A stretch of DNA of 64,000 nt from positions 28,944-92,943 of the IMG/VR virus record IMGVR_UViG_3300028042_000001; one strand, 5' to 3'. The notes beneath the pieces were generated by a model. It had not been told where the DNA came from. It searched no databases and saw nothing but the letters and a program-made list of their open reading frames with translations. Made by a program: the position numbers and the translations under genes. Position 1 is the first letter of the stretch. Each line of letters opens with the position of its first letter. Source of the DNA: a virus (lineage: Duplodnaviria; Heunggongvirae; Uroviricota; Caudoviricetes). Positions 8,736-47,761 of this stretch are shown here, piece by piece.

Positions 8736-8743
8736 ATAAAGAT

Positions 8744-9882: not shown

Positions 9883-9885
9883 TAA

Positions 9886-10641
9886 ATGGCTATTACTAAT
9901 ATAAATATATCAGATAATACAAATGCATCTGTAGATTATAAAAATAATAATAATACAACAAATCTATTATTATCAGATACTTCTACTATATATAATAAAT
10001 TTGTTGTTAATGAATCTGAAGATATCATATTTATAATTCATCCTACATTAAGGATATCGGATTATATTAAACGAATACCAGAAGAATTATTAGAAGTTAA
10101 TGATAGTTCAAGAATAAATGTTGATTTTAGAAATACTCAAAAAGAAAATATAGTAATTTCTGATTCTACTATTTCTCATTTACATACTATTCAGACAGTA
10201 AATGATTCTATTAATTTTAGATCTGAAGTTCGTGGTAATGTAATATATGGCCCAGATACATCAGCAAGCAATACAACCATAACAGATTCAGTTTTTGCAT
10301 TTATATCAAAACACTCTTCAAGAAACTTTAAAAATGCCATGTTTAATCTTCTTGGGACAACAGAAGAAATAATTTATACATGTGATGTAAAAAATACAAC
10401 AATTATTAATATTTCTTTATGTAATCGTACTTTAAATAACATTAATATTGATGTTTTATTATATAAAAGTGGAATTCCTATATATATAATGAAAGGTATA
10501 TTAGTAAAACCACATCAATCTTATGTTATAAATAATAATAGCGAAACAAATGTACAATTAGAAGGATCTGATGAAATAAGAATGATTACTGATACTGATA
10601 ATTCATCAGATATTTATATGGCTTTAATGGAACAATCATAG
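9886..10641 (+). CDS. Virion structural protein (tail-associated)
   Basis: C-terminal half (FKNA...IYTC...IINISLCNRT..L..SDEI) is paralogous to the next ORF. Confidence 0.55.
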   Translation: MAITNINISDNTNASVDYKNNNNTTNLLLSDTSTIYNKFVVNESEDIIFIIHPTLRISDYIKRIPEELLEVNDSSRINVDFRNTQKENIVISDSTISHLHTIQTVNDSINFRSEVRGNVIYGPDTSASNTTITDSVFAFISKHSSRNFKNAMFNLLGTTEEIIYTCDVKNTTIINISLCNRTLNNINIDVLLYKSGIPIYIMKGILVKPHQSYVINNNSETNVQLEGSDEIRMITDTDNSSDIYMALMEQS

Positions 10642-10651
10642 GAAAATAAAA

Positions 10652-10996
10652 ATGTCAATAGAATTTAAAAATAAAACAACACAAGGTATAGGAACTGGAT
10701 TTACTGAAGTTTATGCTTGTCCCGGAAGTGTTAATTCATCTGTAATTTTTGGTATGACTATTGCAAATGTAGAATCAACATCAATACCTATTACTGTAGA
10801 AGTTAGGATAGAAGATTTATCAGCAACTACATATACACATATTGTAGCACCAGATACACCGATAGAAGTAGGAGCATCACTTGTTCCTGCTGGTGGTGTT
10901 CAAAAAATAGTTTTAGAGCCGGGTGATAAAATTCAAGTTGCTTGTTCTGATGCAAGCGGAGCTGATGTTTTTATTTCAGCATTAGAACTTTCATAA
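10652..10996 (+). CDS. Small virion structural protein (FKN...VYxxP...IFGMTIAN family)
   Basis: Motif pattern common in tail-fibre-adjacent phage proteins. GGAAA RBS upstream. Confidence 0.6.
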   Translation: MSIEFKNKTTQGIGTGFTEVYACPGSVNSSVIFGMTIANVESTSIPITVEVRIEDLSATTYTHIVAPDTPIEVGASLVPAGGVQKIVLEPGDKIQVACSDASGADVFISALELS

Positions 10997-11008
10997 AAAG
11001 AGGAAAAA

Positions 11009-22854: not shown

Positions 22855-23610
22855 ATGTTACCAAAAGATAAAGATGAGTTTGTAGATTATTGTTTAAGGA
22901 GTTTAGGGGCACCTGTTATTGATATAAATGTTGATCCTGATCAAGTAGATGATAGGGTTGATGAAGCTTTACAATTTTATCAAACATACCATTATGATGC
23001 TATAGAACATGTAGCAATAACATATGAACTTACTCAGGATGATATTGATAATAAATATATTATCATTCCTTCTGATATATTATCAGTTATAGATATGGTT
23101 TATGATGGAGAAGGTTCTATAAAAGGTGGATTTGGTAATAATTTATGGCATGGTATGAATGCTATTGCTTATGATATAGGATTTGGTTCAGGAGCATGTA
23201 GATATGGAACATCTTATTATCACTCTATGATGAATTATATGGCTGAATTAAAGTTTTCATTCAAAGTAAATCATGCAATAGAATTTCAATACAAAAATCA
23301 TCACGTTAGTATTAATATGGATTGGAGTAAGTTAAAAGTAGGAGGAATATTAGCTTTTGATGTATATAGAATAATAGATCCAGAAAAATTTGGTGATGTT
23401 TGGTCAGATAGAAGTCTTCAAGAATATGCTATATGTCTTATCGGAGAACAATGGGGAGTAAATCTTTCAAAATTTGATGGTGTGGAACTTCCGGGTGGAT
23501 TAACTCTTGATGGTGATAAAATTTTTGATAGATATCATGATAGAAGAGTATTATTAGAAGAAGAATATAGTTTAAAATGGGAAGAGCCTGTAGATTTTTT
23601 TATAGGATAA
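22855..23610 (+). CDS. gp13: Neck protein, T4 gp13-like
   Basis: DYCLRSLGAPVIDINV..QVDDRVDEALQFY and QWGVNLSKFDGVELPGGLTLDG. Confidence 0.92.
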   Translation: MLPKDKDEFVDYCLRSLGAPVIDINVDPDQVDDRVDEALQFYQTYHYDAIEHVAITYELTQDDIDNKYIIIPSDILSVIDMVYDGEGSIKGGFGNNLWHGMNAIAYDIGFGSGACRYGTSYYHSMMNYMAELKFSFKVNHAIEFQYKNHHVSINMDWSKLKVGGILAFDVYRIIDPEKFGDVWSDRSLQEYAICLIGEQWGVNLSKFDGVELPGGLTLDGDKIFDRYHDRRVLLEEEYSLKWEEPVDFFIG

Positions 23611-23612
23611 TT

Positions 23613-25181
23613 ATGAAATCATATAAAGAATTATTAATAGAAAAGAAAGATCATATAATAAAACGGTTAAAAAATTTGTCAAAAGAAGAGAAATCTTTAT
23701 TAATATCGTTTTTTAAAAAAAATCCCCATACAGAAAATAAAATTGATTGGAATAATAATAATCTTATTTTTAATGATTTTAAAGATATTCTTACTAGTGT
23801 ATCAAAACGCAAGAAAAAACGAGCATTAAAAGATAAAGGAATTAGAGGACTAAAAAAAGGCGAAGATTATATCAATATTAAATTAAAAAATAAAGAATAT
23901 CTTGCTTATATTCCTCTAAATTATGAAGCATCTAAATCTATAGCAACTGCTCATATAGGAAATTGTGAGGGAAAATGGTGTGTTGCTTATCAAAAATCTA
24001 GTATATATTGGCAACATTATAATTATCAAGGATCTAATGATGGAGGTTCTAGTAGCATTTTTGTTTATATTATAGGTAATGGTACTAAATGGGCTATGGA
24101 TATCAAAGGAAGCACTTATGATGTGTGGAATGCAGAAGATAAACAAACTATAGAAAATGGAAATCCAACATCATATGCATTACAGAATTTAAATAATAAA
24201 CCATATCCTGTTGATGGAGTTATGCATGATATAATGTCAAAAAAACGATTGTTTGATGATATTAAACAATCTAAAGTTGATAAAAAAATATCATTTATAG
24301 AAAAAGCTAAAACAAGAAATTCCACATATGGAACATTAGATGTTGGTATTGATATTCCCGGAACAAAATCAAAGCAAAGTGATAATGTTTGGTTCTCTGG
24401 TGATTGGATTAGTGGTACTTGGCATAGTGGTAGTTTTATAGGGTATGATAGCGTTTGGTATAATGGTATATGGTTAGGAGGAAGTTTTAATGCTCCTTAT
24501 TGGAGAAATGGTACATGGAAATATGGTGTATGGAATATAGATAAAAACCAATCAGAATGGAAAAATGGTACTTGGGAAAATGGATATTGGTATTATGGTA
24601 CTTGGAAATCTGGACTTTGGGAAAATGGATGGTGGGGTGATGGACTTTGGGAAGATGGAATTTGGGAAAATGGTACTTGGAAAAACGGCACTCATGTAAC
24701 GGGTCAATGGGAAACAGGTACTTGGGAAAATGGCACTTGGGAAAATGGTATATGGCTTGATGGTGCTTGGAAAAATGGTATCTGGGAAAATGGTGAGTGG
24801 AAAGATGGTATATGGCATCGGGGAAGATGGAAAACTGGTAGTTGGTTTGGTGGGATTTTTATAGATGGTCAATGGGAAGATGGACATTGGTATAATGGTA
24901 CATGGTTAAAAGGTATTTGGACTTCTGGTAGATGGCATGGTGGAGAACATAGAAATGGTATTTGGATATCAGGGGAATGGTTAGGTGGTAAATGGATAGA
25001 TGGTACATGGAAAGATGGTATATGGCTTGATGGTATATGGAAATCTGGAAAATGGGAAAAAGGTATCTGGGAAGGTGGATATGATGAAAAAGGATATTAT
25101 CATGAAAAAGGTGATTCTCCTGATAAATGGGATTATGAAAAAATATCAAGACGAAGAAAAAAACATATAAGAAGGAATTAA
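23613..25181 (+). CDS. Putative internal head protein, paralog P1 (shared N-domain plus W-x-x-G-x repeat tail)
   Basis: Leader MKSYKELLIE; GEDY..AYIPLNY...WC motif; long GTWENG-type repeat region. Confidence 0.7.
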   Translation: MKSYKELLIEKKDHIIKRLKNLSKEEKSLLISFFKKNPHTENKIDWNNNNLIFNDFKDILTSVSKRKKKRALKDKGIRGLKKGEDYINIKLKNKEYLAYIPLNYEASKSIATAHIGNCEGKWCVAYQKSSIYWQHYNYQGSNDGGSSSIFVYIIGNGTKWAMDIKGSTYDVWNAEDKQTIENGNPTSYALQNLNNKPYPVDGVMHDIMSKKRLFDDIKQSKVDKKISFIEKAKTRNSTYGTLDVGIDIPGTKSKQSDNVWFSGDWISGTWHSGSFIGYDSVWYNGIWLGGSFNAPYWRNGTWKYGVWNIDKNQSEWKNGTWENGYWYYGTWKSGLWENGWWGDGLWEDGIWENGTWKNGTHVTGQWETGTWENGTWENGIWLDGAWKNGIWENGEWKDGIWHRGRWKTGSWFGGIFIDGQWEDGHWYNGTWLKGIWTSGRWHGGEHRNGIWISGEWLGGKWIDGTWKDGIWLDGIWKSGKWEKGIWEGGYDEKGYYHEKGDSPDKWDYEKISRRRKKHIRRN

Positions 25182-25411
25182 TGAAAAAATATAATAATTT
25201 TATATCAGAAAATAAAGCAAGTATTCTATTTAAAGTAACATATGATGGAAGATATGCTAAAAGATTTTGGGCAGATAGTAAAGAAGAAGCTATAAAAAAA
25301 GCTGATAATACAAAAACAATGAAAAACAAGAAAAAAATAATGAAGTTTGATCCTAAAAAATATTCAGTAGAAATAATAGATAAATTAGAGAAATCAATAG
25401 GAATGGGATAA
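25181..25411 (+). CDS. Small putative internal head protein
   Basis: Leader MKKYNNFISE; AGGA RBS; translational coupling on both sides. Confidence 0.6.
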   Translation: MKKYNNFISENKASILFKVTYDGRYAKRFWADSKEEAIKKADNTKTMKNKKKIMKFDPKKYSVEIIDKLEKSIGMG

Positions 25412-25412
25412 A

Positions 25413-26057
25413 ATGGCAGTAAGCAAATACTTCAAACATGTAACCGCAAAAAATGAGCAATCTCTTATTGATGATTTAACAAGAGAAACTATTTTTCAAA
25501 GAGGTCTTGATTTATATTATATTCCTCGTACAAATTCTGTTGATGGATTTGATTATCTTTTTGGAGAAGATCCAGAAAATAAATTTGATAATGCAGTATT
25601 GATGGAATTTTATTGTGAAAATGTGAGCACAGGATTTGATGGTAGTGCCGCTATTGGAAGATTTGCACTTGAATTAGGAGATATAGCTACGTTTTTAGTG
25701 TCTGTGACTCGTTTCAGTGATGAGGTAACATCAAAGTATCATGAAATAATAAGACCAAGAGAAGGGGATCTGATCGTGTTTAAGACTGATCCTTCTGAAC
25801 CAATGGATATATTTGAAATTACATTCACAGAAAAAGAAACTCCTTTTTATCAAATTGGTAAAAGTAATGTTTTTAGAATGGAAACTGAACGATTTAATTA
25901 CAGCTACGAAACTATGGAAACTGGTGTTGAAGAATTGGATATTAGCGAACCAATAGAACAAGAAAATCAATATCAAGATAATGAGCCGATTCAAAGTGAG
26001 GGTGATAATTTTGTTAATTTTGATGAGTCTGATCCATTTTCTGATGGAGATTATTAA
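25413..26057 (+). CDS. gp14: Neck protein, T4 gp14-like
   Basis: EQSLIDDLTRETI..RGLDLYYIPR, RPREGDLI, FYQIGK..VF.M..E.FNYS.E. Confidence 0.92.
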   Translation: MAVSKYFKHVTAKNEQSLIDDLTRETIFQRGLDLYYIPRTNSVDGFDYLFGEDPENKFDNAVLMEFYCENVSTGFDGSAAIGRFALELGDIATFLVSVTRFSDEVTSKYHEIIRPREGDLIVFKTDPSEPMDIFEITFTEKETPFYQIGKSNVFRMETERFNYSYETMETGVEELDISEPIEQENQYQDNEPIQSEGDNFVNFDESDPFSDGDY

Positions 26058-26120
26058 TGATGATAATATTTAGTAAATATGAAAAATATACACAAAATAT
26101 ATATTAAGGTAAATAATTAA

Positions 26121-26630
26121 ATGAAATATTTTAATCAATTTTTAATTGAGAATTACAAATTCTCTTCAGTTCAAGTAAAAATGCCAGACGATATAAGCAA
26201 AATGATAGTAGAATTTGGTATGGAAATACCTAAAAAACATTTGGCGGCTGATGGTAGAGATGATAGACCTCATATAACCATAAAATATGGTATTCACTCA
26301 GAGTCAGTTGATGTTCTTGATGATATAACTCTTCCTGATAAAATAACCGCTGTTATGGGTAAAACAAGTCTTTTTGAAAATGATACAGATGTATTAAAAG
26401 TTGATATTATTTCCCAAGATTTATCTGACCTGAATATGGCTATTACGAAAGGAACAAAAACAACTCAAACACAGTGTGAATATCATTCTCATGTTACTAT
26501 TGCATATTTATTGAAAGGAAAAGGTCAAAAATATACTAATGATGATAGATTTGAAGGGAAAGAAATTGAATTTAACAATATTGAGTTCAGTTCAAAAAAC
26601 GACAACAAATATATAAAAATAAACTTATGA
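26121..26630 (+). CDS. 2H phosphoesterase (T4 57B/Acb1-like) with capsid-targeting-like leader
   Basis: Two HxT motifs (PHITIKYG and SHVTIAY); leader MKYFNQFLIE. Confidence 0.75.
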   Translation: MKYFNQFLIENYKFSSVQVKMPDDISKMIVEFGMEIPKKHLAADGRDDRPHITIKYGIHSESVDVLDDITLPDKITAVMGKTSLFENDTDVLKVDIISQDLSDLNMAITKGTKTTQTQCEYHSHVTIAYLLKGKGQKYTNDDRFEGKEIEFNNIEFSSKNDNKYIKINL

Positions 26631-27868
26631 AATCATATAAAAAATATTTAACAGAATCAGATTACCTGCGTTTCTTAAAAAAGAATAAACATTTATCTGA
26701 TGATCAAAAAAATAAAATTAATATTTTTTTTAAATCAGATAAAAAAGCTGTGCAACAATTTGAAAAGAAATGGGGATGGCAATCTAAATATCCTCAAAAA
26801 ATGATGTGGGATGATTTTGAAGACATAATGATGTTGTATAAATCTGGAAGACGAAAAAATTTAAAATCTATTAATATTCGGGGAAAAAAAGGTGAAGATT
26901 ATTGGCCTGTAAAATTAAAAACAAAAGGGTTTATAGCTAATATTCCTCTCAATTATAATACTGCGAATTTTATGAATTCTTGTCGATATGGAGAATTGAA
27001 TGTTAATTATTGTATCGGATGGGGAGATGGTAAATCATATTGGTTAGAGCATGTTATTACTGATAATAATGTTCCTGTTTATATCATTGATGGTGATAGA
27101 AAATGGGTAGTAATGATAGACGAAGATAATCATTCATATCAAGTTTGGGATAAATTAAATCAAAAAGATATAGCGATAGGGAATAAAGAACCTATTCCCG
27201 GATTCTCTATCAAAAAAGAACTTCTTAATTCCCGGATGAAAAAGGTTTATGACGAGATTAGAGAAGATTTTTATGCTAAAGATGGCCCTCCATATACAGA
27301 AGCTAATTTAGAAGAAGCTATGGATGAATATGGTGCTTTAAATGATGATATTAAGAATGATATTATTAATATATCAGAGTCCGAAAGAGAGTATAATGAT
27401 AATGGATATGATGTTAAAAATGCAACTATTGAATATTATACAGAAGAAATTGAAGATTTGGATGAAGGAGATCCATTAATTGATATTTATAAAATATTTA
27501 TAAATATTATAGATGATACTCCACCAGATAAAGAAGAATTATTAGCAACAGAAAAAGAATATCAAAAAGAATATCCTGATGCTAATTTAACATTACAAGG
27601 AGAATTATATGATTATTATTCTCAAACAAAAAAATTCGTAGATATAAAAGATGACTATCCTTTATTAATACGGGTTTTAAAATCACAGAATAACGGTAAT
27701 ATTATATATAAAAAAGTTAATATGAATATAATTAATTTTATCAATGAAAATGCGTTTGAAAATTCATATGATGCATTAAATTGGAGAACACTAGAAGATG
27801 ATATGAGTGATATGTTGGATAATAATAATATTTTTGATCCTGATTATAATGATGAATACTACGATTAA
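26627..27868 (+). CDS. Putative internal head protein, paralog P2 (acidic tail)
   Basis: Leader MKSYKKYLTE; shared N-domain; D/E/Y-rich C-terminus. Confidence 0.7.
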   Translation: MKSYKKYLTESDYLRFLKKNKHLSDDQKNKINIFFKSDKKAVQQFEKKWGWQSKYPQKMMWDDFEDIMMLYKSGRRKNLKSINIRGKKGEDYWPVKLKTKGFIANIPLNYNTANFMNSCRYGELNVNYCIGWGDGKSYWLEHVITDNNVPVYIIDGDRKWVVMIDEDNHSYQVWDKLNQKDIAIGNKEPIPGFSIKKELLNSRMKKVYDEIREDFYAKDGPPYTEANLEEAMDEYGALNDDIKNDIINISESEREYNDNGYDVKNATIEYYTEEIEDLDEGDPLIDIYKIFINIIDDTPPDKEELLATEKEYQKEYPDANLTLQGELYDYYSQTKKFVDIKDDYPLLIRVLKSQNNGNIIYKKVNMNIINFINENAFENSYDALNWRTLEDDMSDMLDNNNIFDPDYNDEYYD

Positions 27869-27880
27869 TAGAGGAATATA

Positions 27881-28735
27881 ATGGCAATAACAGATTTTTT
27901 TTATCACGGTAGTACCAGAAAGTTAATAGTTGCATTCGGGACATTATTTAATAATATAACAATATCAAGAAAAGATAATAAAATAATAACAGTTCCTCTT
28001 ACTTATGCATCAAAAGAAAAATTTTACTTAACTTTCAAACAAAATTATAATCTTAATAAAATGTCTAATATGACGTTACCAAGAATGGGATTTATTATAA
28101 GTGATATTGCTTATGATTTTGAAAGAAAAACATCAAGTATTGGTAAATTTCATGCCCATGGTATAGATAATAATTCTCATAAGAAAATGTATATGCCAGT
28201 TCCTTATGATCTAATAATAGAGCTTTCTATATATTCTCGCAACATGATTGATGGTTTGCAAATATTAGAACAAATAATTCCTTTCTTTAAACCATCGTTT
28301 AATATAACCATAAATGAACTTGATCCTATGGGTGTTATGAGAGATATTCCTATTATCTTAGATAGTATTTCTCCTGACGATACTTCTGAAACTGATATAT
28401 CTGATGGTTTTAGACTTATTAGATGGGATTTAAATTTCACCATGAAAGCTAATTATTATGGCCCTATACAAAATCAAAAGATTATTAAAAAGGTTTATGT
28501 AGATTATCATACTTCTACTGATGGGAAATATAATGAAGAAGTTGATGAACGATATTACCTTGAAGTAGATCCTTTAGAATCACGTCAAGAAGATATATGG
28601 GAATATAGTGAAGAACTTATTTCTTCGCATGATTCAAATAACATTTCTATAATTCCTTTAGAAGTTGATATTGCAGGACGTGATGTAGATGGTTTAATTT
28701 ATATTGCTGATTCATGTAAATGGAAGATTATTTAA
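27881..28735 (+). CDS. gp15: Tail terminator/sheath stabiliser, T4 gp15-like
   Basis: FYHGSTRKLIVAFGTLFNNI, VPLTYASKEKF, LPRMGF, QILEQIIPFFKP. Confidence 0.93.
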   Translation: MAITDFFYHGSTRKLIVAFGTLFNNITISRKDNKIITVPLTYASKEKFYLTFKQNYNLNKMSNMTLPRMGFIISDIAYDFERKTSSIGKFHAHGIDNNSHKKMYMPVPYDLIIELSIYSRNMIDGLQILEQIIPFFKPSFNITINELDPMGVMRDIPIILDSISPDDTSETDISDGFRLIRWDLNFTMKANYYGPIQNQKIIKKVYVDYHTSTDGKYNEEVDERYYLEVDPLESRQEDIWEYSEELISSHDSNNISIIPLEVDIAGRDVDGLIYIADSCKWKII

Positions 28736-29466
28736 TGGAGTTCAATATATTTCTTTTAACATGTGAGAAATAATTTCAGCAAATGTATATAGCGAAGCTG
28801 TGACCGAAGGGAACTTAAAAGATTACATGATATAATCTGATGTTTTAAATATGTTATTTGATATTAATTAAGATGTGGTTTAAATGATATACATTTAAAC
28901 ATAATTTTTCTAAACCCATTACATAAATGATTTATATAATAGAATGGAATTAATTTATATATTATTTAATGGAATATGAATATGTAGAATTGAATTACAT
29001 GATATATCATTAGATAAAATCATATGAAATCAAATAACATGTTATATCATGTTTATGCTTCGCAATTATCAGCTTCGTACCTCGCTGATAAGATATAATA
29101 TATTTTAATTATTTTTTTTTTTAATATTATTTTAATTAGTTTTTTTTTTTTTAAACGCACTTTAGCACCCTATGGTTTGTTATAACCAAAAAAAATATGT
29201 TTTAAATAACATTTTTATGTATTTCGTTTTATTATTTACTGAATTAACGTATGCCTCCCAATTAAGAAATCCCTTGTCTCAATCCTTTATGGTTAATTTT
29301 TTAATATTATTTTTTAATATTAATTATATAACTTCCAGTTTTGAACGGGCATACAATATCCGTTATTCCTACGATTTCCTTATATAAGGCGAAATATAGT
29401 AGGATGATCGGCTCTCCGGTGATAGAGCCAGCAATTTTCTTATAATCTTTTGTAATAAAATACCAA
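28736..29466. other. 730-bp non-coding region with inverted motif arrays, T tracts and hairpins (candidate origin or structured RNA)
   Basis: No credible ORF. Inverted copies of GCGAAGC, ACATGATATAA and ATGTTATTTGAT; hairpins at 29066-29091 and 29344-29429. Confidence 0.45.
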
Positions 29467-29832
29467 TTATGAAGTTTTATTTTTTCTTCTTATGATTACT
29501 ACTTTTTTTTCATTTTTTTTGGTATTATCTAATTGAGAATTTTTAGATTTTTTATTAATATTCCTCTTTTTTTTATTGAAAGGATGTTTTGATTGTTTTA
29601 TGTATATATTTTTAAAAATAGTAGTAAAACCATTTTTAACTCTCATGAATTTAATATAAACATAATCTCCTTTTTTAACGTTGTCTCCTTTTACGTTTGT
29701 TTTTGATTGAATTCTATTTCTTCTACCAGTATCAAAATTGTAAAAAGAACAAGATATTTTACCTATATCAATTATTTGAGCACGAACACTCATTCTTTTT
29801 ACACTGGTTTTTCTGTTTCTGTTATTCTTCAT
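29467..29832 (-). CDS. Basic hypothetical protein
   Basis: 121 aa, K/R-rich, co-oriented downstream of the 173-aa ORF. Confidence 0.5.
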   Translation of the reverse strand: MKNNRNRKTSVKRMSVRAQIIDIGKISCSFYNFDTGRRNRIQSKTNVKGDNVKKGDYVYIKFMRVKNGFTTIFKNIYIKQSKHPFNKKKRNINKKSKNSQLDNTKKNEKKVVIIRRKNKTS

Positions 29833-29852
29833 AATACTATTTATACATATTA

Positions 29853-30374
29853 TTATCCATGAAATAATCTATCTCTGTTATATGATACAACAGGATCATC
29901 TAAATTATAATCATATACTATATTATCAAAGAAATTATCTTCATCAATTCTATAATTAATAGATTCAGCAAATAAATAATTAGAATCATCTATATCTTCT
30001 TCTAACATACCATCTATACCCATACAAGATGCTTCATACACATCAGATATAAACATACCAGTATAAAGAATAGGTTCTAAATTATGTTTTTTAACAAAAA
30101 TATCAGCATTACACCATATACATATTATTTCTTTTTTCTTTTTTAAGAAAGGAACAATACTATCATTAATTAAATAACCGAACCATCCTCCAAATAAACC
30201 AGATCCGCTACCATGACCACACATAATAATACGATCATGTGATTGAATAGCTTTAATAATTTCTTCTCTTTTCATATCAGGATTATCGATAATAGTCCAA
30301 TTATTTTTATTTTTATATATTTCTTTAAGAAATATAGTTGTACTATCTTCAGGATGAATAACTAAAGTTTTCAT
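29853..30374 (-). CDS. Hypothetical protein with caspase/gingipain-like His-Gly and Cys motifs
   Basis: IIMCGHG and ICIWCNA; GAGGA RBS; TTGACA upstream at 30435-30440 (minus strand). Confidence 0.55.
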   Translation of the reverse strand: MKTLVIHPEDSTTIFLKEIYKNKNNWTIIDNPDMKREEIIKAIQSHDRIIMCGHGSGSGLFGGWFGYLINDSIVPFLKKKKEIICIWCNADIFVKKHNLEPILYTGMFISDVYEASCMGIDGMLEEDIDDSNYLFAESINYRIDEDNFFDNIVYDYNLDDPVVSYNRDRLFHG

Positions 30375-30456
30375 AATTTATTTCCTCTTCATTGATTTTA
30401 TATTGTAAAATACACTAATCCATTTTATACGTATTGTCAAGTGCTATTTTGTTTAT

Positions 30457-30464
30457 TATAAATA
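30457..30464 (+). promoter_or_regulatory. Late promoter TATAAATA for gp16
   Basis: Exact intergenic motif 35 nt before the gp16 start. Confidence 0.7.
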
Positions 30465-30498
30465 ATAGTAAGAATAATGAAACTAAACGGAGAATATT

Positions 30499-30888
30499 AT
30501 GACTAAAGATGATGATATAGTAGAAGCTGAATTTTCTGAAGATGAAGATAACTTACCATCTGTTGTGGATAAAAATACTCAAGTTGATATAGAATTTGAT
30601 TATGCACGATCTAATATTATTAATATATTGCAAATATCTAATACTGTTTTAGAAAATACAGCATATTTAGCGGCTGTAGCTGATGATCCAAGAATGATAG
30701 ATGTTTATTCTGGGTTTATTAAAAATTTAACTAGTATTAATATGTCTCTGCTTGAAATTAGAGAAAAAAAGATGAAAATTAAGGGGGAACTTATTGATGA
30801 AGATGATGCTCCTGTAGGAACCACTATAAATAATAACGCAATTTTTGTAGGATCTACAGAAGAATTGCTTCAAAAATTAAAGGGATAA
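30499..30888 (+). CDS. gp16: Terminase small subunit, T4 gp16-like
   Basis: DYARSNI....DDPRMIDVY and C-terminal INNNAIFVGSTEELLQKL. Confidence 0.85.
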   Translation: MTKDDDIVEAEFSEDEDNLPSVVDKNTQVDIEFDYARSNIINILQISNTVLENTAYLAAVADDPRMIDVYSGFIKNLTSINMSLLEIREKKMKIKGELIDEDDAPVGTTINNNAIFVGSTEELLQKLKG

Positions 30889-30889
30889 T

Positions 30890-32170
30890 ATGCAATCATT
30901 TACTACACATATAAATGAAGATAAAAAAAGATTTATTAGAAAAAATAAAAATATGAATAATTTTGAGAAAATTGAAATTATAAAATTCTTCCAAAAAAAC
31001 CGACAAGCAGAGAGTAAAGTAAATTGGAATAAATCTAAAGATATGACTTATGATGATTTTTTAGACATAATGATGCAATCTAAATTAGGTAGAAAAACTA
31101 ATCTCAAATGTAATAAAATTAAAGTTAAGAGTGCTGTAGAAGGTGAAGATTATGTTCATATTATAATGAAAACAAAAGAATATTGTGCTTATATACCTCT
31201 TAATTATGAGACTGCTAAAAAATTTAACACAAGGGAACTTGGTGTGTGTGGTGGCCCTTGGTGTATTGGTCATTCAGATACACCGTTTCATTGGAATTCT
31301 GAAATTATAGAATATAAACAAATACCTATATATATTGTAAATAAAAATTCTAAATGGATTGTGATGATTAAGGATAATAATAGAAATTATGATATATGGA
31401 GTGTAGAAAATAAACCCAATAAAACTCATGAAGGAATTCCTAATTTTTCTGTTAGGAAAGAACTTTTAAATTCAAACCAAAAAAATATGTATGATGAAAT
31501 ACGTGACGAATATTATAATGAAGATGAAATCGAAGAAATTGATATTGATGATGCTATTAATGATTATGAATCATTAGTAGAAGATATTGAAACTGCTAGA
31601 AATGATTTTAGCGAAGCATATGATGAATTTAATAATGAAGCATATCAGATTATATCTGATACAAAGATATGGTATCTTGCATCAATAGAAGAAAAAGAAG
31701 ATGAGAAAAAAGAAGATGAAGAAGAATTAGAACATTATAATAATGATATTAATAACGATGATCTAAATCAAGATGAAAAAGAATTAATAATTAATAGTAT
31801 TGAACAACTTGAAGAAGATATAGAATCTCTTAATTACGAAATAGAAGAACTTCAATCTGATTATGATACACTTGAAGATATAGCAGTATATGAAATGAAT
31901 GATTATGATATTAAATGGACAGAAGATCCACCGTATGAAGATGATATATTAAATAATTTACATTATCCTTCTGTATATGATTTTGATTATTCAGATTATT
32001 TAGAGTTAGCTGAAAATTATATGGATTTTTGGTCTGGTAGTGATAAAGGCACTGTTGATTCTGAAATTAATTTATATATACAATATGAATATGGTAGTAC
32101 TTCATTTGAATCAGCAATAGAATTATTAAGTGATTACGGATTATATCATCCAGAAATAGTAAATAACTAA
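30890..32170 (+). CDS. Putative internal head protein, paralog P3 (acidic tail)
   Basis: Leader MQSFTTHINE; shared N-domain (GEDY, AYIPLNY, WCIG, KW, Y.IW); strongly acidic C-half. Confidence 0.7.
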   Translation: MQSFTTHINEDKKRFIRKNKNMNNFEKIEIIKFFQKNRQAESKVNWNKSKDMTYDDFLDIMMQSKLGRKTNLKCNKIKVKSAVEGEDYVHIIMKTKEYCAYIPLNYETAKKFNTRELGVCGGPWCIGHSDTPFHWNSEIIEYKQIPIYIVNKNSKWIVMIKDNNRNYDIWSVENKPNKTHEGIPNFSVRKELLNSNQKNMYDEIRDEYYNEDEIEEIDIDDAINDYESLVEDIETARNDFSEAYDEFNNEAYQIISDTKIWYLASIEEKEDEKKEDEEELEHYNNDINNDDLNQDEKELIINSIEQLEEDIESLNYEIEELQSDYDTLEDIAVYEMNDYDIKWTEDPPYEDDILNNLHYPSVYDFDYSDYLELAENYMDFWSGSDKGTVDSEINLYIQYEYGSTSFESAIELLSDYGLYHPEIVNN

Positions 32171-32179
32171 GGAAAAAAA

Positions 32180-33553
32180 ATGAAATCATTTATAAAATAC
32201 ATAACAGAAGCAAATTATTCTAGATTTTTAAAGAAAAATAAAAATTTAAACACTGACCAAAGAAATGAAATTAATTATTTCTTTTCTAAAATTAATACTC
32301 AAGCAGGATCAAAAATAGATTGGCAAAATAAAAAAATCAGGAATATGACTTATGATGATTTTGAAAATATCATATTAAATTCTAAATCTGGAAGACGAAA
32401 AAATTTAAAATCTATTAATATTCCCGGAAAAAAAGGTGAAGATTATTGGCCTGTAAAATTAAAAACAAAAGGGTTTATAGCTAATATTCCTCTTAATCAT
32501 AAAACTGCAAATTATATGAATTCTTGTAAATATGGAACAATAGATGTTAATTATTGTATCGGATGGGGAGATGATGCTGAATATTGGGATAGTCACGTTA
32601 TTGATGATCAAGAATTACCTGTTTATATAATTGATGGTGATAGAAAATGGGTTGTTATTATTGATGATGGTAATCATTCATATCAAGTTTGGGATAAATT
32701 AAATCAAAGAGATATATCAAAAAGTAATAAAGAACCTATTCCCGGATTCTCTATCAAAAAAGAACTTCTTAATTCCCGGATGAAAAAGGTTTATGACGAG
32801 ATTAGAGAAGATTTTTATACAGAAGATGATAGAAATGATGAAAACGAACATGAATATGATAGATCTGATGCTATAAATGACTATAATGAATTTATTTCTA
32901 ATATTGAAAGTGCTAAAAAAGACTTAGAAGAAGGAAGAGATGAATATTATAAAATATTATCAGATACTTATAATGATACTCTTGAATACTATGAAAATCT
33001 TAGAGATGAATTTGAAGAGAAAATGACTTCTGCTGAAGAAAAAATGGATTCTGTTGAAGAAAAAAAAGATGAGTTAGATGGTATTATATCTGATGATTAT
33101 CCAGATAAAACTGAAGATGGTGTATATATGTATAAGTATAATGGATCGTATTGGACAATGGAACAATTAAATGTTTTATTTGATGATATATATGATTTAT
33201 TCCAAAAATATGAATCTCAAAAAGAAGATTTTGAAGAACAGTGGAATATATATGATGATGCTTATAATGAAATTGATGAAATTGATGATGGTGATGGATA
33301 TGAAATGTCTTCTAAATATGATGATTACGAATGGCAAGGTGATATACCAGAAGAATTTAGTTATGAACAAAATATTAATATTCCACATATTTCTTACTAT
33401 AATGAATATATAGATTTTCTTGAATATTTTGGTTTTACTATTGATGAGGATTATATTCAAGAAAAAATATGGTCATATATTTATGAAGATTCTTTATCAT
33501 CTGCTGAAGAAGCATTAAGTTCTGCTGGTTTATACACCCCGGAGGCAGATTAG
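32180..33553 (+). CDS. Putative internal head protein, paralog P4 (acidic tail)
   Basis: Leader MKSFIKYITE; shared N-domain; acidic C-half. Confidence 0.7.
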   Translation: MKSFIKYITEANYSRFLKKNKNLNTDQRNEINYFFSKINTQAGSKIDWQNKKIRNMTYDDFENIILNSKSGRRKNLKSINIPGKKGEDYWPVKLKTKGFIANIPLNHKTANYMNSCKYGTIDVNYCIGWGDDAEYWDSHVIDDQELPVYIIDGDRKWVVIIDDGNHSYQVWDKLNQRDISKSNKEPIPGFSIKKELLNSRMKKVYDEIREDFYTEDDRNDENEHEYDRSDAINDYNEFISNIESAKKDLEEGRDEYYKILSDTYNDTLEYYENLRDEFEEKMTSAEEKMDSVEEKKDELDGIISDDYPDKTEDGVYMYKYNGSYWTMEQLNVLFDDIYDLFQKYESQKEDFEEQWNIYDDAYNEIDEIDDGDGYEMSSKYDDYEWQGDIPEEFSYEQNINIPHISYYNEYIDFLEYFGFTIDEDYIQEKIWSYIYEDSLSSAEEALSSAGLYTPEAD

Positions 33554-34200
33554 ATGAAACATTTTAAAGATTATATATTAGAGGCAGATTATAGTAGATT
33601 CTTAAAAAAGAATAAACATTTATCTGATGATCAAAAAAATAAAATTAATATTTTTTTTAAATCAGATAAAAAAGCTGTGCAACAATTTGAAAAGAAATGG
33701 GGATGGCAATCTAAACATCCAAAAGAAATGAAGTGGCACGACTTCGAAAATATAATGATGAAATATAAATCTGGAAGACGAAAAAATTTAAAATCTATTA
33801 ATATTCCCGGAAAAAAAGGTGAAGATTATTGGCCTGTAAAATTAAAAACAAAAGGGTTTATAGCTAATATTCCTCTTAATCATAAAACTGCAAATTATAT
33901 GAATTCTTGTAAATATGGAACAATAGATGTTAATTATTGTATCGGATGGGGAGATGATGCTGAATATTGGGATAGTCACGTTATTGATGATCAAGAATTA
34001 CCTGTTTATATAATTGATGGTGATAGAAAATGGGTTGTTATTATTGATGATGGTAATCATTCATATCAAGTTTGGGATAAATTAAATCAAAGAGATATAT
34101 CAAAAAGTAATAAAGAACCTATTCCCGGATTCTCTATCAAAAAAGAACTTCTTAATTCCCGGATGAAAAAGGTTTATGACGAGATTAGAGAAGATTTTTA
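32383..34200 (+). repeat. 435-bp exact direct repeat (32383-32817 = 33766-34200) within P4 and P5
   Basis: Compared line by line by eye; identical at offset 1383. Confidence 0.85.
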
Positions 34201-34939
34201 CAATACATCAAATATTAGTACAGAAGAAGCAATAAATTCTTATAATGAAATAGTATCAGATATAAGAGTTTATGCTGTTAGTTTATATGAAGATGAACAA
34301 TATTATTATGAAAATATGGAAACAGTAAAAGATAATACATATGATAACTATATAAATCTAGCTGATGAAGCAGAAGGTATTGCAGAAGAACAATCAGGAT
34401 CTGCTCCTCCTATTTTTATAGAAAAAGTTGAATTAATTAAAAATATACTTAAAATTCATCCAAATGGAACAGATGTAGATTCTAATGGTGATCCTATTTG
34501 GATAATACGTAGGGTTAAATATAATAAAAAAGAACTTGAAGCTTTTATTGATGTTTATGAAAAAGAAATTAATAAACCATCTAAAGAACCAGATTATACA
34601 ACTCGTGATCATTTTATAAAACTTGCTAATATAATTAATGATATGAGTGTTTGGGATATGATCGAATATGATATGAATGGTGATGATGAAATAGAATGGG
34701 ATGAAGATGTTTATGAATATGAGGGTTGTTATGATTGTTATCAACCAGATCCTCATAACTCTGCATATGAACCTTATTTTGATTTTCTTGTTGGTAATAA
34801 TATTGATGTTGATATGGATTATGTGTTTTCTGATATGTATGAATTATCGGATGGTGGTAGTTGGGATGTTAATGATGAAGATATTAAAGATTGGATGAGT
34901 ATTAATGATATGCCACATCCAGATGATATAGGAGAATAA
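33554..34939 (+). CDS. Putative internal head protein, paralog P5 (mosaic of P2 and P4, acidic tail)
   Basis: Leader MKHFKDYILE; DNA-identical segments shared with P2 and P4. Confidence 0.7.
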   Translation: MKHFKDYILEADYSRFLKKNKHLSDDQKNKINIFFKSDKKAVQQFEKKWGWQSKHPKEMKWHDFENIMMKYKSGRRKNLKSINIPGKKGEDYWPVKLKTKGFIANIPLNHKTANYMNSCKYGTIDVNYCIGWGDDAEYWDSHVIDDQELPVYIIDGDRKWVVIIDDGNHSYQVWDKLNQRDISKSNKEPIPGFSIKKELLNSRMKKVYDEIREDFYNTSNISTEEAINSYNEIVSDIRVYAVSLYEDEQYYYENMETVKDNTYDNYINLADEAEGIAEEQSGSAPPIFIEKVELIKNILKIHPNGTDVDSNGDPIWIIRRVKYNKKELEAFIDVYEKEINKPSKEPDYTTRDHFIKLANIINDMSVWDMIEYDMNGDDEIEWDEDVYEYEGCYDCYQPDPHNSAYEPYFDFLVGNNIDVDMDYVFSDMYELSDGGSWDVNDEDIKDWMSINDMPHPDDIGE

Positions 34940-34941
34940 TA

Positions 34942-36528
34942 ATGAAATCATTTAGTGATGTTAATGAAATGGCAAGAAAAAATCCTGATCGTAATCCTCG
35001 TATTACATCATACCAGTATTTAATTGATAATGGATATAATACTAGTGATTATTTCTTCTCATTTACGAAGTTAAAGAAGGTTGGTATAAATCCATCTTCG
35101 AGGTATGACACTCCTAATGGTATATATTGTTTTCCTGCTGTAGAGATATTTAAAATAGTTAATGGTGATATGAATAATGTTCCTTATGTTAATGATGCTC
35201 CTTATATCCATGTATTAAAAAAGAAAGGCGGTGGTATTATAGATCCAATAGAAACCTATTCTAGGTCTGATTATCAAAAAGATATGGATAAATTACTCAA
35301 ATACATCACCAAACCAATTAAAGGGCATTTACCTATAAATAATGTTGGTAAAAGAGAAATTAAAGATATTATGGATGATGGTAAAAGATTATCAACAAAA
35401 CAAAATCCTTTCGGTTGGTTATGGAATACTACACGATTACTATCATTGGATAATGAAATTGCTAATCGTATGGGATGGAAAGGAGCAAAAAAAATAGATG
35501 GATATAAAGATTGGTATAGCGAAATAGATAAATGGCAATTCGACAAAAAAACTCATAAAAAGATAAGAAAACATAAAAATAAAAGAAAAGGAAAATTTAA
35601 AGAAAGATATGGGGTTAAGTATAGTTCTCAGGGATGGAATAATCTATTACGATTACTTGGTTATAATGGATTTGTTGATAGATCTGGTAGTGGTACTATA
35701 CATTCTAACGAACCAACTCAAGCGATGTTTCTTTCATCAAAATCATTTGATGTTGTTGATATGGTCGAGAATAAGAGTTATGAATTATTATATAGACAAC
35801 AAGGTATAGATGATACAATAAAAAAATTAGAAGATAAACATAATACTGTTATTATTTCAGGGGATTTGAATAAAAGTGCATTAGAAGGATTAAATAAATT
35901 ATCAAATGGAGATATAAGAGGTTGTAGAATAGAATATTATATGAATATATTTAATATTTTTGATGGTGAAATGAGTAATTTTGATATATTAGGTGATATA
36001 TTTCATTTAAATGGTGTAACCTTAGATAGCGGAAATTTTTATATTATGAGATATATAAAGGATTGTGTTATTACCGGAGGAAATTATGAAGATTGTGAAA
36101 TTAACTCATGTGAGGTTATATCAGGAAAATTTCATTCATGTGATTTTCCTGATACTAATGTTATAAACAATTCTACATTAATAAAATGTAAGCGATTAAA
36201 AAATCATATGATGTTTAATTGTAACTTTGATTCTTGTAGAACTTATGATTGTTCTTTTGGTAGTGGTTGTGCTGTTAATGATACATTAATATTTGGAGAT
36301 AAGAAAATATTACTTTTAGATAATAATGTTGCTTATATGGATTGTCAATTTAATAATGTTAGCATATCTAATGGTTTGTATAAAGAATTTAGAATAGAAC
36401 GATCTATTATTAAAAATGGTGAATTTAATACAGGAAGAATAAGTTCTTCTATTATTAAAGGTGGTGATTTTAAAGATACTGTATTTTACGAAACTGATTT
36501 TCAAGGCGGTAATATAATAGATGGCTAA
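34942..36528 (+). CDS. Putative internal head protein with ADP-ribosyltransferase-like N-domain and beta-helix-like C-terminal repeats
   Basis: Leader MKSFSDVNE; GINPSSRYDTPNGIYCFP; GYNGFVD...HSNEPTQAMF; I.GG.F-type repeats at the C-terminus. Confidence 0.5.
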   Translation: MKSFSDVNEMARKNPDRNPRITSYQYLIDNGYNTSDYFFSFTKLKKVGINPSSRYDTPNGIYCFPAVEIFKIVNGDMNNVPYVNDAPYIHVLKKKGGGIIDPIETYSRSDYQKDMDKLLKYITKPIKGHLPINNVGKREIKDIMDDGKRLSTKQNPFGWLWNTTRLLSLDNEIANRMGWKGAKKIDGYKDWYSEIDKWQFDKKTHKKIRKHKNKRKGKFKERYGVKYSSQGWNNLLRLLGYNGFVDRSGSGTIHSNEPTQAMFLSSKSFDVVDMVENKSYELLYRQQGIDDTIKKLEDKHNTVIISGDLNKSALEGLNKLSNGDIRGCRIEYYMNIFNIFDGEMSNFDILGDIFHLNGVTLDSGNFYIMRYIKDCVITGGNYEDCEINSCEVISGKFHSCDFPDTNVINNSTLIKCKRLKNHMMFNCNFDSCRTYDCSFGSGCAVNDTLIFGDKKILLLDNNVAYMDCQFNNVSISNGLYKEFRIERSIIKNGEFNTGRISSSIIKGGDFKDTVFYETDFQGGNIIDG

Positions 36529-44425: not shown

Positions 44426-45091
44426 ATGGCATTTCTTATAACAGAAGATAATTTTAAAGATGTAAAAGCAAGTCATGTTCTGGATGAAGCTACTCAAACT
44501 AAAAAATATTTTATTGAGGGTGTATTTTTACAAGCAGAACAAAAAAATAGAAATGGCAGAATATACCCAACTTATATTCTTGAACGAGAAGTTGAGCGTT
44601 ATACAATAGATTATATTAATAAAAATAGATCATTAGGAGAACTTAATCATCCTGAATCACCATCAGTTAATCCTGAAAGAGCATGTCATTTTATTAAAGA
44701 ACTTAATAAAGTTGGTAATGATTGGATGGGTAAATCTCAAGTAACATCAGAAGGTCTTGGTAAAATTGTTCGTGGTCTTATTGAAGATGGTGTTCAGCTT
44801 GGAGTGTCATCTCGTGGTCTTGGTACTCTTAGAGAAGAAAATGGAACTAAATATGTTAATGAAGATTATTATATGAGTACTATCGATGTTGTGTCAGATC
44901 CTTCTGCTCATGATGCGTGGGTTAATGGAATTTATGAAGGAAATGAATTTTATATAGGAGATGATGAAGAATTTATTAATAAAGTAAAAAAACATATTGA
45001 TTCAGAAGTAAGAAAGACTGGATTTTCTATGAATGAAGAACAAATTACTCTTATAGCATTTCAAAAAATGGTTGATAATATTAACGGATAA
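44426..45091 (+). CDS. gp21: Prohead protease, T4 gp21-like
   Basis: FIEGVFLQAEQKNRNGRIYP, GELNHP, LGVSSRGLG, DVVSDPSA. Confidence 0.96.
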   Translation: MAFLITEDNFKDVKASHVLDEATQTKKYFIEGVFLQAEQKNRNGRIYPTYILEREVERYTIDYINKNRSLGELNHPESPSVNPERACHFIKELNKVGNDWMGKSQVTSEGLGKIVRGLIEDGVQLGVSSRGLGTLREENGTKYVNEDYYMSTIDVVSDPSAHDAWVNGIYEGNEFYIGDDEEFINKVKKHIDSEVRKTGFSMNEEQITLIAFQKMVDNING

Positions 45092-45465
45092 TGAAAACAT
45101 ATAACGATTTAATAATAGAATTTTCACCAACAGATTATGTTCCTGATGTACTATTACCTTCTTCTATGAAAAAATTCAAGAAGAATTATAAAAATATAGA
45201 AAGGATGTTTCCGGGTGTATCACAATTTTTAAGTGTTGCTAATAGATATGTTCTTAGAGGTAATAGATATAAAAATAAAGATTTAAAACGGTTACTTAAA
45301 AGAATAAAAAAGCGACCTGATATTTCTGATATGAATAAAAGAGATTTAAAGTATGTGTATGAATTTATAAATAAATACAAACTTTATAATGTAGAATCTA
45401 TTAGAAATATATTTAATGATTATTCTGATTTTTCTGAAAAACAGCAGAATAATAAGCCTGAATAA
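45091..45465 (+). CDS. Putative internal head protein
   Basis: Leader MKTYNDLIIE, very close to the T4 internal-protein CTS MKTYQEFIAE. Confidence 0.6.
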   Translation: MKTYNDLIIEFSPTDYVPDVLLPSSMKKFKKNYKNIERMFPGVSQFLSVANRYVLRGNRYKNKDLKRLLKRIKKRPDISDMNKRDLKYVYEFINKYKLYNVESIRNIFNDYSDFSEKQQNNKPE

Positions 45466-46381: not shown

Positions 46382-47761
46382 ATGAATGAATTTTTAACTG
46401 CTGAACAAATTCAGGAAAATTGGAAGCCTGTTTTGGAGCACAAAGATATCCCTGAAATTAAAGATAGCTATCGTAAGAAAGTAACAGCTATCCTTCTTCA
46501 GAATCAAAAAGAACATATTGCAGAGCAAGCTTTGCATGAAGCCCCTACTAATGTAACTGGTGGAGTTGATAAATTTGATCCCGTTCTTATCTCTATGGTA
46601 AGACGTTCTGTTCCTGCTATGCTTGCGTTTGATATATTTGGCGTACAGCCAATGAAAGGCCCAACAGGACTTATTTTTGCACTTAGAGCACAATATGGTG
46701 CCCAACCTGCAATTGGTGCTGATACCACAGCTCATGAAGCTCTAGTTAATGAAGCTGATTCAGGATACACAGGTGCTCCTCGTAATCCTGTAGATGGTAC
46801 TGATCCTACTACTGCTGGACAAGGTGGAGATTCTAGTGCTTATGGTGGTACTTTTGGTGATGAACCAACTCCGGGAACTACTTCTGCAAAACAATCTGAT
46901 CCTTTTGCCGCTGATTTTGGTTATGGTGTTGGGATGGATACCAATCTTGCGGAAACTCTTGGTGAAGAAGCTGAATGGGCTAAGATGTCATTCACTATCG
47001 AGAAATTGTCTGTTGAGGCAAAATCTCGTGGATTGAAATCTGAGTATTCTGTAGAACTTGCTCAAGATCTTAAAGCTGTACATGGGCTTTCTGCTGAACA
47101 AGAGCTTGCTACAATTATGAGTACAGAAGTAACAAATGAGATGAACCGGGAGATTCTTCGCAGAACTTACAATATGGCTGTTCTTGGTTGTCAAGAGGGT
47201 GATATTGCTGTTGCCGGAACTTATGATCTTGATGTTGATTCAAATGGTAGATGGTCTGTTGAACGATTCAAAGGACTTATGTTCCAAATTGAACGTGAAG
47301 CAAATGCAATCGCTATTAACACTCGTAGAGGTAAAGGTAATTGGATTATCTGTTCTGCTAATGTAGCTTCTGCTCTTGCAATGACAGGTCTTCTTGATAC
47401 TGCTGGTAATACTAAAGTAACTCCGGGTAATGTTGATCCTGTTGGTAATCTTTTTGTTGGTGTAATGAATGGTATGATCAAAGTATATGTTGATCCTTAT
47501 GTAACAATTGATATGGCTGTTGTTGGTTATAAAGGTTCTAATGCTTATGATGCTGGTGCTTATTTCTGCCCATATATCCCACTTACATTGTATAAGAATA
47601 CAAATAGTGATTCATTCCAGCCTCGTCTTGGATTCAAGACTCGTTATGGAATTGGTGCTAATCCTTTTGTTCGTGAATATACTGGTGGTTCTTTTTCTAC
47701 AGGATTAGAAGCTCGTAAGAATAGTTATTTCCGTATCTTTAAGATTGAGAATTTGATGTAA
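46382..47761 (+). CDS. gp23: Major capsid protein, T4 gp23-like
   Basis: WKPVLEH, DPVLISMVRR, GVQPMKGPTGLIFALR, KSRGLKSEYSVELAQDLKAVHGL, FQPRLGFKTRYG. Confidence 0.98.
   Translation: MNEFLTAEQIQENWKPVLEHKDIPEIKDSYRKKVTAILLQNQKEHIAEQALHEAPTNVTGGVDKFDPVLISMVRRSVPAMLAFDIFGVQPMKGPTGLIFALRAQYGAQPAIGADTTAHEALVNEADSGYTGAPRNPVDGTDPTTAGQGGDSSAYGGTFGDEPTPGTTSAKQSDPFAADFGYGVGMDTNLAETLGEEAEWAKMSFTIEKLSVEAKSRGLKSEYSVELAQDLKAVHGLSAEQELATIMSTEVTNEMNREILRRTYNMAVLGCQEGDIAVAGTYDLDVDSNGRWSVERFKGLMFQIEREANAIAINTRRGKGNWIICSANVASALAMTGLLDTAGNTKVTPGNVDPVGNLFVGVMNGMIKVYVDPYVTIDMAVVGYKGSNAYDAGAYFCPYIPLTLYKNTNSDSFQPRLGFKTRYGIGANPFVREYTGGSFSTGLEARKNSYFRIFKIENLM

Follow-up and report, generated by a model that had tools for sequence, protein, structure and literature searches.

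Five paralogous genes, P1 to P5, lie in the late structural module of a distant T4-like myophage from an uncultured source, and on balance, judging from their sequences, their products are internal (ejection) proteins that the phage packages in its head. The DNA analysed here, called the window, is a stretch of 64,000 nucleotides (nt) from a 156.9-kb IMG/VR virus record (completeness ~87%, G+C ~28%), whose large terminase (TerL) has its counterparts in cyanophages and Methylophilales phages at 47-50% identity. All five open reading frames (ORFs) are on the plus strand and encode proteins of 413-522 amino acids (aa): P1 at 23613..25181 (522 aa), P2 at 26627..27868 (413 aa), P3 at 30890..32170 (426 aa), P4 at 32180..33553 (457 aa) and P5 at 33554..34939 (461 aa). 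They are the only family copies in the genome record. Each protein consists of a conserved domain of about 200 aa (the N-domain), whose first ten residues form a T4-type leader, and of a tail, which is strongly acidic in P2-P5 and a Trp-Gly repeat in P1.

The leaders follow the consensus MKS[YF]xxx[LI]xE, and read MKSYKELLIE in P1 (23613-23642), MKSYKKYLTE in P2, MQSFTTHINE in P3, MKSFIKYITE in P4 and MKHFKDYILE in P5, with LIE, LTE, INE, ITE and ILE, respectively, at residues 8-10. Mullaney & Black in 1996 and Repoila et al. in 1994 reportedly worked on IPI, IPII and IPIII, the internal proteins of T4, and on the capsid targeting sequence that these carry. In the T4 record, IPII and IPIII both start MKTYQEFIAE, IPI starts MKTFKEF and has ITE followed by A further on, and another small T4 ORF starts MKTFKEFIKE. 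The capsid targeting sequence loads the internal proteins of T4 into the prohead core, and is removed after (L/I)xE by the gp21 protease (PMC3012670; PMC12373910). The leader is shared by the wider family to which P1-P5 belong, with the consensus M-K-[ST]-F-K-[EQ]-Y-[LI]-x-E-[AK] in 67 members in which the domain starts at residue 1, and with Glu10 retained in 93% of 143 diverse aligned rows whose identity falls to ~20%. Furthermore, in both AlphaFold models made (the N-domain and full-length P4), residues 1-10 have a predicted local distance difference test score (pLDDT) of 56-57 and residues 11-20 one of 94-96, and because of this jump the ordered domain appears to begin at the predicted cut.

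The window also encodes the protease that would be expected to remove the leader. A gp21-type prohead protease gene is located at 44426..45091 on the plus strand (PF03420, Peptidase_S77, E 1.8e-36), and protease and scaffold proteins are both present by PHROG matches (phrog_207, E 6.6e-62; phrog_237, E 2.2e-76). In the major capsid protein, encoded at 46382..47761 on the plus strand, I46-A47-E48 aligns with a stretch of T4 gp23 that ends in L-T-E, which we take to be the gp23 maturation site, LTE65 followed by A.

As a control, a strict leader pattern applied to 1158 candidate starts in T4 found only ipII and ipIII. With a background rate for the motif of 2e-4 per position, about 0.2 matches were expected in the present genome, and eight ORFs were found, all inside the structural module. 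Beyond P1-P5 these include a 76-aa ORF (MKKYNNFISE) and a 124-aa ORF (MKTYNDLIIE). A 2H-phosphoesterase-like protein (MKYFNQFLIE) matches under a looser pattern, and a 528-aa protein starting at 34942 falls outside both patterns because its leader, MKSFSDVNE, is one residue shorter. None of these four neighbours has the N-domain, and the leader is the sole feature that they have in common with P1-P5, as is the case for leader-bearing proteins in T4. The first-pass annotation of this stretch had suggested that the constant N-domain serves for delivery or anchoring. Its layout of a constant front and a variable back is correct and delivery to the host is plausible, but the likely signal is the ten-residue leader and not the 200-aa domain, because the leader matches the T4 tag, ends in (L/I)xE, is accompanied by an encoded protease, and is also found on unrelated neighbours. 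A late promoter motif, TATAAATA, is not enriched in the genome (40 matches vs 31 expected), and copies of it are found upstream of the small terminase gene (TerS) and within ~65 nt of P3.

The anatomy of the five proteins is largely as described in the earlier annotation. In an alignment of the five, the N-domain (residue 1 to residues 209-221, ending at 24275 in P1, 27274 in P2, 31516 in P3, 32818 in P4 and 34201 in P5) has 39 invariant columns, among them those of GEDY, IPLN, a Cys, KW and Y..W in the motif first noticed. Pairwise identity of the N-domains is 26-84% (BLASTP E 1e-18 to 1e-135), and all are basic, with isoelectric points (pI) of 9.1-9.5. Similarity across the family stops at YDEIR[ED]xxY (residues 209-216), as had been noted, and nucleotide identity falls there from 91-100% to ~50%. 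The four tails called extremely acidic are so: those of P2 (197 aa), P3 (217 aa), P4 (244 aa) and P5 (245 aa) contain 25-32% Asp plus Glu and 8-11.5% Tyr, and have a pI of 4.05 and net charges of -34 to -62, the last in P3. The repeat ascribed to P1, W-x-x-G-x, is also present, as some 50 pentads of the form W-[EK]-[ND]-G-[TI] at residues 260-506 (24390-25130) with a 15-nt period in the DNA; a short basic stretch completes the C-terminus. Trp occurs 42 times in the P1 tail, and 32 of the 41 Trp-to-Trp spacings are exactly 5.

The N-domain has no match in Pfam or PHROGs, and a PDB sequence search with its profile found no relative (best E 0.04). When 1.84 billion cluster representatives were searched with a profile, 666 relatives were recovered at E <= 1e-3, and 456 met the stricter limit of E <= 1e-10; in almost every case the domain is at the N-terminus of a protein of 350-500 aa. 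Those that carry a name are all called 'hypothetical protein', and several are on metagenome-assembled contigs labelled Epsilonproteobacteria. The AlphaFold model of the N-domain (pLDDT 92.8, predicted template-modelling score 0.85) has a helical subdomain at residues 14-77 and an alpha/beta subdomain at residues 89-171. Comparison of this model with 48,161 representative PDB chains found no solved relative (best Z score 4.8, none >= 5), and the weak rows for GNAT, p32 and KorB helix-turn-helix folds are not trusted. Foldseek with the full-length model against the PDB gave coiled-coil noise only. A BFVD search with the N-domain model recovered seven uncharacterised phage proteins at E <= 1e-3. 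Within the family alignment the conserved polar residues are C126 (100%), Y89 (99%), K156 (99%), D88 (98%), D60 (83%) and S115 (80%), a set that suggests an active or binding site, although no known catalytic arrangement can be assigned to it. A PD-(D/E)xK nuclease was considered and rejected, the D-x-K at residues 154-156 being conserved neither in P1 nor family-wide; a zinc site was likewise rejected, the second Cys of G.C.G.WC being absent from P2, P4 and P5.

The tails had been described as mutually divergent. They are divergent, but those of P2-P5 are not unrelated. The tails of P3 and P4 are 30% identical over 245 columns (E 3e-8) and those of P4 and P5 are 28% identical over 205 columns (E 3e-6), and an iterated P4-tail profile recovers the tails of P2, P3 and P5 and, in all, 69 out of 189 proteins of the family, a count that may be inflated by acidic composition. 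By sequence similarity, then, the four acidic tails of this phage are homologous copies of a single domain that evolves fast. The full-length model of P4 has high confidence over its entire length (pLDDT 92.9). Its tail begins with a 77-residue helix (residues 228-304), continues with a small hairpin (316-326) and a helix that runs back (327-366), and ends in a small, folded helical C-terminal subdomain (pLDDT > 90). Because they are homologous and predicted to form a coiled-coil hairpin domain, the acidic tails are not unrelated modules within this phage. Fold matches of the P4 tail are to generic coiled-coil hairpins (IpaB, CT398 and HP0958) at Z 9-10, which is the noise range for helical models, and in VIA-align with the full model the helical tail drowned out other matches. 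In the PDB sequence search neither the P4 tail (no row below E 0.1) nor the P1 repeat found a relative, and Pfam applied to 56 acidic-tail members gave scattered coiled-coil families only.

The P1 repeat has no match to the Pfam pentapeptide families, and has only its five-residue period in common with the A(D/N)LXX consensus. Its unit, WENG[TK]W, combines a spacing and an Asn-Gly turn that are presumably those of the designed tryptophan zipper hairpin (SWTWENGKWTWK). The ESM Atlas also contains stand-alone viral proteins of 100-212 aa built of this type of Trp-Gly repeat. Among the 150 best family representatives, 61 tails are acidic, 21 are of the Trp-Gly class, 11 are short and 57 are of other kinds, the last including DUF285, pentapeptide, leucine-rich repeat (LRR), BspA-LRR and LysM/hydrolase modules; relatives in the Atlas have ankyrin-repeat (Ank) tails.

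Fronts and tails have been recombined in this family. The first 180 nt of the P5 gene are, from nt 61 on, 92-100% identical to P2, and a stretch of 360 nt (nt 241-600) is 100% identical to P4, making the N-domain of P5 a P2/P4 mosaic; identity to both falls to ~50% past nt 660, the junction of domain and tail. When 142 N-domains are placed on a maximum-likelihood tree, the Trp-Gly label requires 17-19 changes for its 21 rows, no better than shuffled labels, and at least 8 changes are needed even if only well-supported branches are counted. Since the tree scrambles the tail labels and P5 is a mosaic, fronts and tails have been recombined many times, whether by swapping of tails or by gene conversion of fronts. 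The proposal that the tails are interchangeable is thus borne out family-wide, across acidic, Trp-Gly, pentapeptide, LRR and DUF285 tails, but not within this phage, where the acidic tails are homologues of one another.

From these observations we infer the packaging, cleavage and injection of P1-P5 and a role for them in the host. The first ten residues would act as a T4-type capsid targeting sequence that brings each protein into the prohead scaffolding core, where the gp21-type protease would cut behind residue 10, the Glu of (L/I)xE. After this cut the protein, now consisting of the basic 200-aa domain and the tail, would remain in the DNA-filled head and enter the host with the DNA. There the conserved domain, with its invariant Cys126 and near-invariant Asp88, Tyr89 and Lys156, may provide a common activity or a docking function, and the fast-evolving tail, an acidic coiled-coil hairpin or a Trp-Gly repeat, may bind a host target, most likely one involved in defence or takeover. 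Recombination within the conserved domain would keep the fronts of the paralogs alike and reshuffle fronts and tails. The closest precedent is that of T4 Ip1-3, which have the leader alone in common, are injected, and each block a different GmrSD nuclease (PMC12373910; PMC3012670), and by analogy with this precedent counter-defence is the most likely role in the host.

The likeness to the T4 internal proteins lies in the leader of about ten residues, M-K-[TS]-[YF]-x-[EQ]-[FY]-[IL]-x-E, ending in a gp21 site, in the encoded gp21/S77 protease, in the presence of several diverging genes per genome, and in the occurrence of the leader on unrelated proteins. There are also differences. IPI, IPII and IPIII are proteins of 95-193 aa with the leader only, whereas P1-P5 add a 200-aa domain and, in four cases, a homologous acidic tail; and the ip genes of T4 occupy separate loci, whereas P1-P5 are inside the neck/terminase block, and their packaging is predicted from sequence. 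A second comparison is with the jumbo phages phiKZ and SPN3US, which have paralogous families of ejection or inner-body proteins with protease-cleaved propeptides (PMC5694885, PMC7411985). These, too, are multi-copy families of head-internal proteins cut after Glu by a prohead protease, as is proposed for P1-P5, but they belong to another phage lineage and to other protein families, and were established by proteomics.

Several points weigh against packaging. Very acidic cargo next to packed DNA is unusual. No member of the family is present in 50,697 GenBank phage records, and tblastn against cultured phages likewise found none. The T4 internal proteins are small and share the leader alone, unlike P1-P5 with their 413-522 aa and their common domain. 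The S77 protease was not detected in a complete, very divergent 139.9-kb genome that has six copies of the family. The acidic tails hold 3-6 further [LI]xE motifs, which are not depleted there; in the N-domains [LI]xE is depleted, in rows that are related, and the outcome of this comparison is ambiguous. Finally, [LIV]xE is kept before the domain even inside longer fused proteins, and because it is kept ahead of internal domain copies, it could be part of the domain and not a cleavage site.

The last point also favours an alternative that we regard as unlikely, in which P1-P5 are never packaged and act in the cytoplasm as accessory proteins, each a PcfJ-like enzyme or adaptor whose tail selects the substrate; the decapeptide would then be the start of the domain, and its likeness to T4 would be due to descent or chance. 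The Ank, LRR, DUF285 and pentapeptide tails of relatives are typical substrate-binding modules, as this alternative would have it, and the canonical PcfJ-like genes of Herelleviridae are located among genes for replication and nucleotide metabolism. A PcfJ-like domain, which is common in Herelleviridae phages and conjugative elements, had been proposed from the WC...W..Y motif. Sequence tests do not bear this out: PF14284 has no match in the five proteins (E up to 0.1), in a six-frame search of the genome (E up to 10) or among the families listed for 67 relatives (E up to 5), and the family hidden Markov model does not match LP65 orf137. Likewise, when the 143-row N-domain profile was compared by hhalign with nine PcfJ domains from Herelleviridae, a small alignment (Neff 3.7), the probability was 0.5% (E 0.12), and the 20 columns aligned were not those of the core; a homologue search for more PcfJ diversity yielded four near-identical proteins only.

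A weak likeness to PcfJ, which also speaks for the cytoplasmic alternative, recurs at the level of fold; the solved chains compared include no PcfJ structure. With the N-domain model, at least 11 rows in BFVD are annotated as PcfJ-like (E 6e-3 to 0.2, template-modelling (TM) score ~0.27), and the nearest named clusters in the ESM Atlas are PcfJ (score 0.90; TM 0.44). By eye, from the sequences and the modelled secondary structure, both have a beta-alpha-Cys-alpha-beta-beta-beta core with the Cys just before the second helix, and both domains are often fused to variable repeat regions. They differ in that canonical PcfJ has H-x-C and is C-terminal in proteins of 470-770 aa encoded among replication genes, whereas the domain of P1-P5 is N-terminal and has [WY]-C instead. 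A remote relationship is therefore possible, but not membership. To our knowledge PcfJ (PF14284) is uncharacterised, and kinship with it would for that reason add no function. Apart from the negative PcfJ tests, the cytoplasmic alternative is at odds with the presence of the same leader on four unrelated late-module proteins and the excess of strict matches over expectation, with the predicted disorder of the leader and the onset of order at residue 11, and with the interleaving of the genes with neck and terminase genes.

A further proposal, which can be combined with packaging, concerns what the acidic tails do. The first-pass annotation suggested that they may be DNA mimics of the Ocr or Arn type. 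In the present form of this idea, for which ArdA is a further model, the tails would be decoys for nucleases of the host or for other defences that bind DNA, and the paralogs would differ in the opponent to which they are adapted. We consider this reading unlikely. The features that speak for mimicry are the net charge of the tails, carried on 197-245 aa, and their predicted shape, an elongated helical hairpin of ~77 residues. The pentapeptide-repeat fold mimics DNA in MfpA and Qnr, and true pentapeptide-repeat tails are found in some family members and in the 528-aa protein encoded at 34942. Injected Ip proteins of T4 are, moreover, nuclease inhibitors (PMC12373910). Like Ocr, ArdA and Arn, the P2-P5 tails are very acidic, and they are predicted to be elongated and helical, but no sequence similarity to these was detected for the P4 tail, which has no relative among solved structures, known mimics included, and the acidic tails are attached to a large basic domain. 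Ocr, ArdA and Arn are absent from the list of P4 fold matches, although that list is dominated by generic coiled coils and the absence is not excluding. Other tails of the family (LRR, Ank and DUF285) are protein binders and not mimics. Furthermore, the scaffold protein of this phage is equally acidic and helical, and because it has the same make-up, composition by itself proves little for mimicry.

A more ambitious extension of packaging, which we hold to be rather improbable, would make the N-domain a new Cys-dependent enzyme or docking module, loaded by the T4-type tag and injected, with exchangeable tails (acidic rod, Trp-Gly, pentapeptide, LRR, Ank or DUF285) that target host defence or housekeeping; the whole would be a modular system of injected effectors, with the acidic tails as DNA mimics, and its logic would be comparable to that of the effector repertoires of bacterial secretion systems. 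Also improbable, in our estimate, is that P1-P5 are scaffold-like components of the prohead core, recruited by the leader, with acidic coiled-coil tails akin to gp22, largely degraded at maturation and without a role in the host: their genes are in the late structural module, their tails are predicted to be long-helical with several undepleted [LI]xE sites, and the scaffold of this phage resembles them (pI 4.35, 27.7% Asp plus Glu, nine [LI]xE sites), but the P4-tail profile does not match this scaffold protein, the tail model has a folded C-terminal subdomain, and five to seven diverging paralogs with swapped LRR, DUF285, pentapeptide and Trp-Gly tails fit the cargo of an arms race better.

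Should the leader mark head-packaged cargo, sequence alone would suffice to predict which proteins uncultured T4-like phages inject, and the present family, with more than 450 cluster representatives, a confidently predicted but unsolved fold and no annotation, would be among the commoner injected cargoes. Its layout joins a gene-converted front, at a junction that does not move, to tails that diverge or are exchanged, and clearly illustrates the diversification of a phage arsenal. Acidic rods and Trp-Gly repeats would be natural binders, and their targets could reveal defences of poorly studied bacteria.

Related genomes also have the family near structural genes. On a related contig, L002, the order is Trp-Gly protein, 2H enzyme, paralog, gp15 and, further on, TerS, paralog, paralog. 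Other phages have 6-7 copies near head genes. Among these, a 35.9-kb fragment has seven family copies and a protease 81% identical to that of this phage. The six copies of the complete 139.9-kb genome mentioned above (G006) are in tandem, with the leader MIKIFKNLNLLE ahead of KKDHII; a capsid gene of the T4 type, very distant in sequence, is ~3 kb upstream of them. A contig from a phage of the same type (L004, JGI 3300033153) has six tandem paralogs at 5031-12454, one of them truncated, with near-identical N-termini of 18 residues (MIKIFKNLNLLEKKDHII), and here, too, a very divergent T4-type capsid gene is ~3 kb upstream. Two or three copies of N-domain plus tail are found in one frame in the family representatives P0058, P0082, P0105, P0113 and P0118, with [LIV]xE ahead of every internal copy; in P0058 an internal M-I-R-I-E-E occupies this place. 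Such multi-copy proteins could be polyproteins on which the protease acts, or neighbouring genes that were joined in gene calling.

Around P1-P5 the gene order is gp13, P1, the 76-aa ORF, gp14, the 2H phosphoesterase, P2, gp15 and then, after an interval, TerS, P3, P4, P5, the 528-aa protein and TerL, and the paralog genes abut or overlap their gp13, gp14, gp15, TerS and TerL neighbours, all on the same strand. The gene for the gp13 neck protein (22855-23610, plus strand) is followed by P1, for which the ORF listing gives an extended start at an upstream ATG at 23577. The 76-aa ORF (25181..25411, plus strand), whose first base is the last base of the P1 stop codon, is unrelated to the paralog family, and is followed by gp14 at 25413-26057 (plus strand). 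Next is the gene for the 2H-phosphoesterase-like protein (26121..26630, plus strand), which overlaps the start of P2 by 4 nt. This protein has weak Pfam matches to 2_5_RNA_ligase2 and Acb1, matches phrog_755, and is possibly a packaged phosphodiesterase acting on cyclic nucleotides or RNA ends; for its homologue on L002, a GTG is the likely start codon, with MIQGFSKFIQE as the resulting N-terminus. Gene 15 is located at 27881-28735, and TerS at 30499-30888, both on the plus strand.

The 528-aa protein (34942..36528, plus strand) overlaps the start of TerL (36521-38191, plus strand). Its C-terminus is a Cys-rich repeat of the pentapeptide type (PF13599 at E 4e-6, below the cut-off; phrog_12514). 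TerL is followed by the genes for sheath, tube, portal, gp21-type protease, scaffold and major capsid protein, in that order. Between protease and scaffold is the basic 124-aa ORF (45091..45465, plus strand), without a PHROG match, a candidate for a protein of the prohead core like gp67/gp68 in T4. Between gp15 and TerS, a pair of minus-strand ORFs of 121 and 173 aa (29467-30374) breaks a late block whose genes are otherwise on the plus strand. Pfam hints for this pair are weak (Peptidase_C50, E 0.0017), and the 173-aa protein is kept at the equivalent place in L002.

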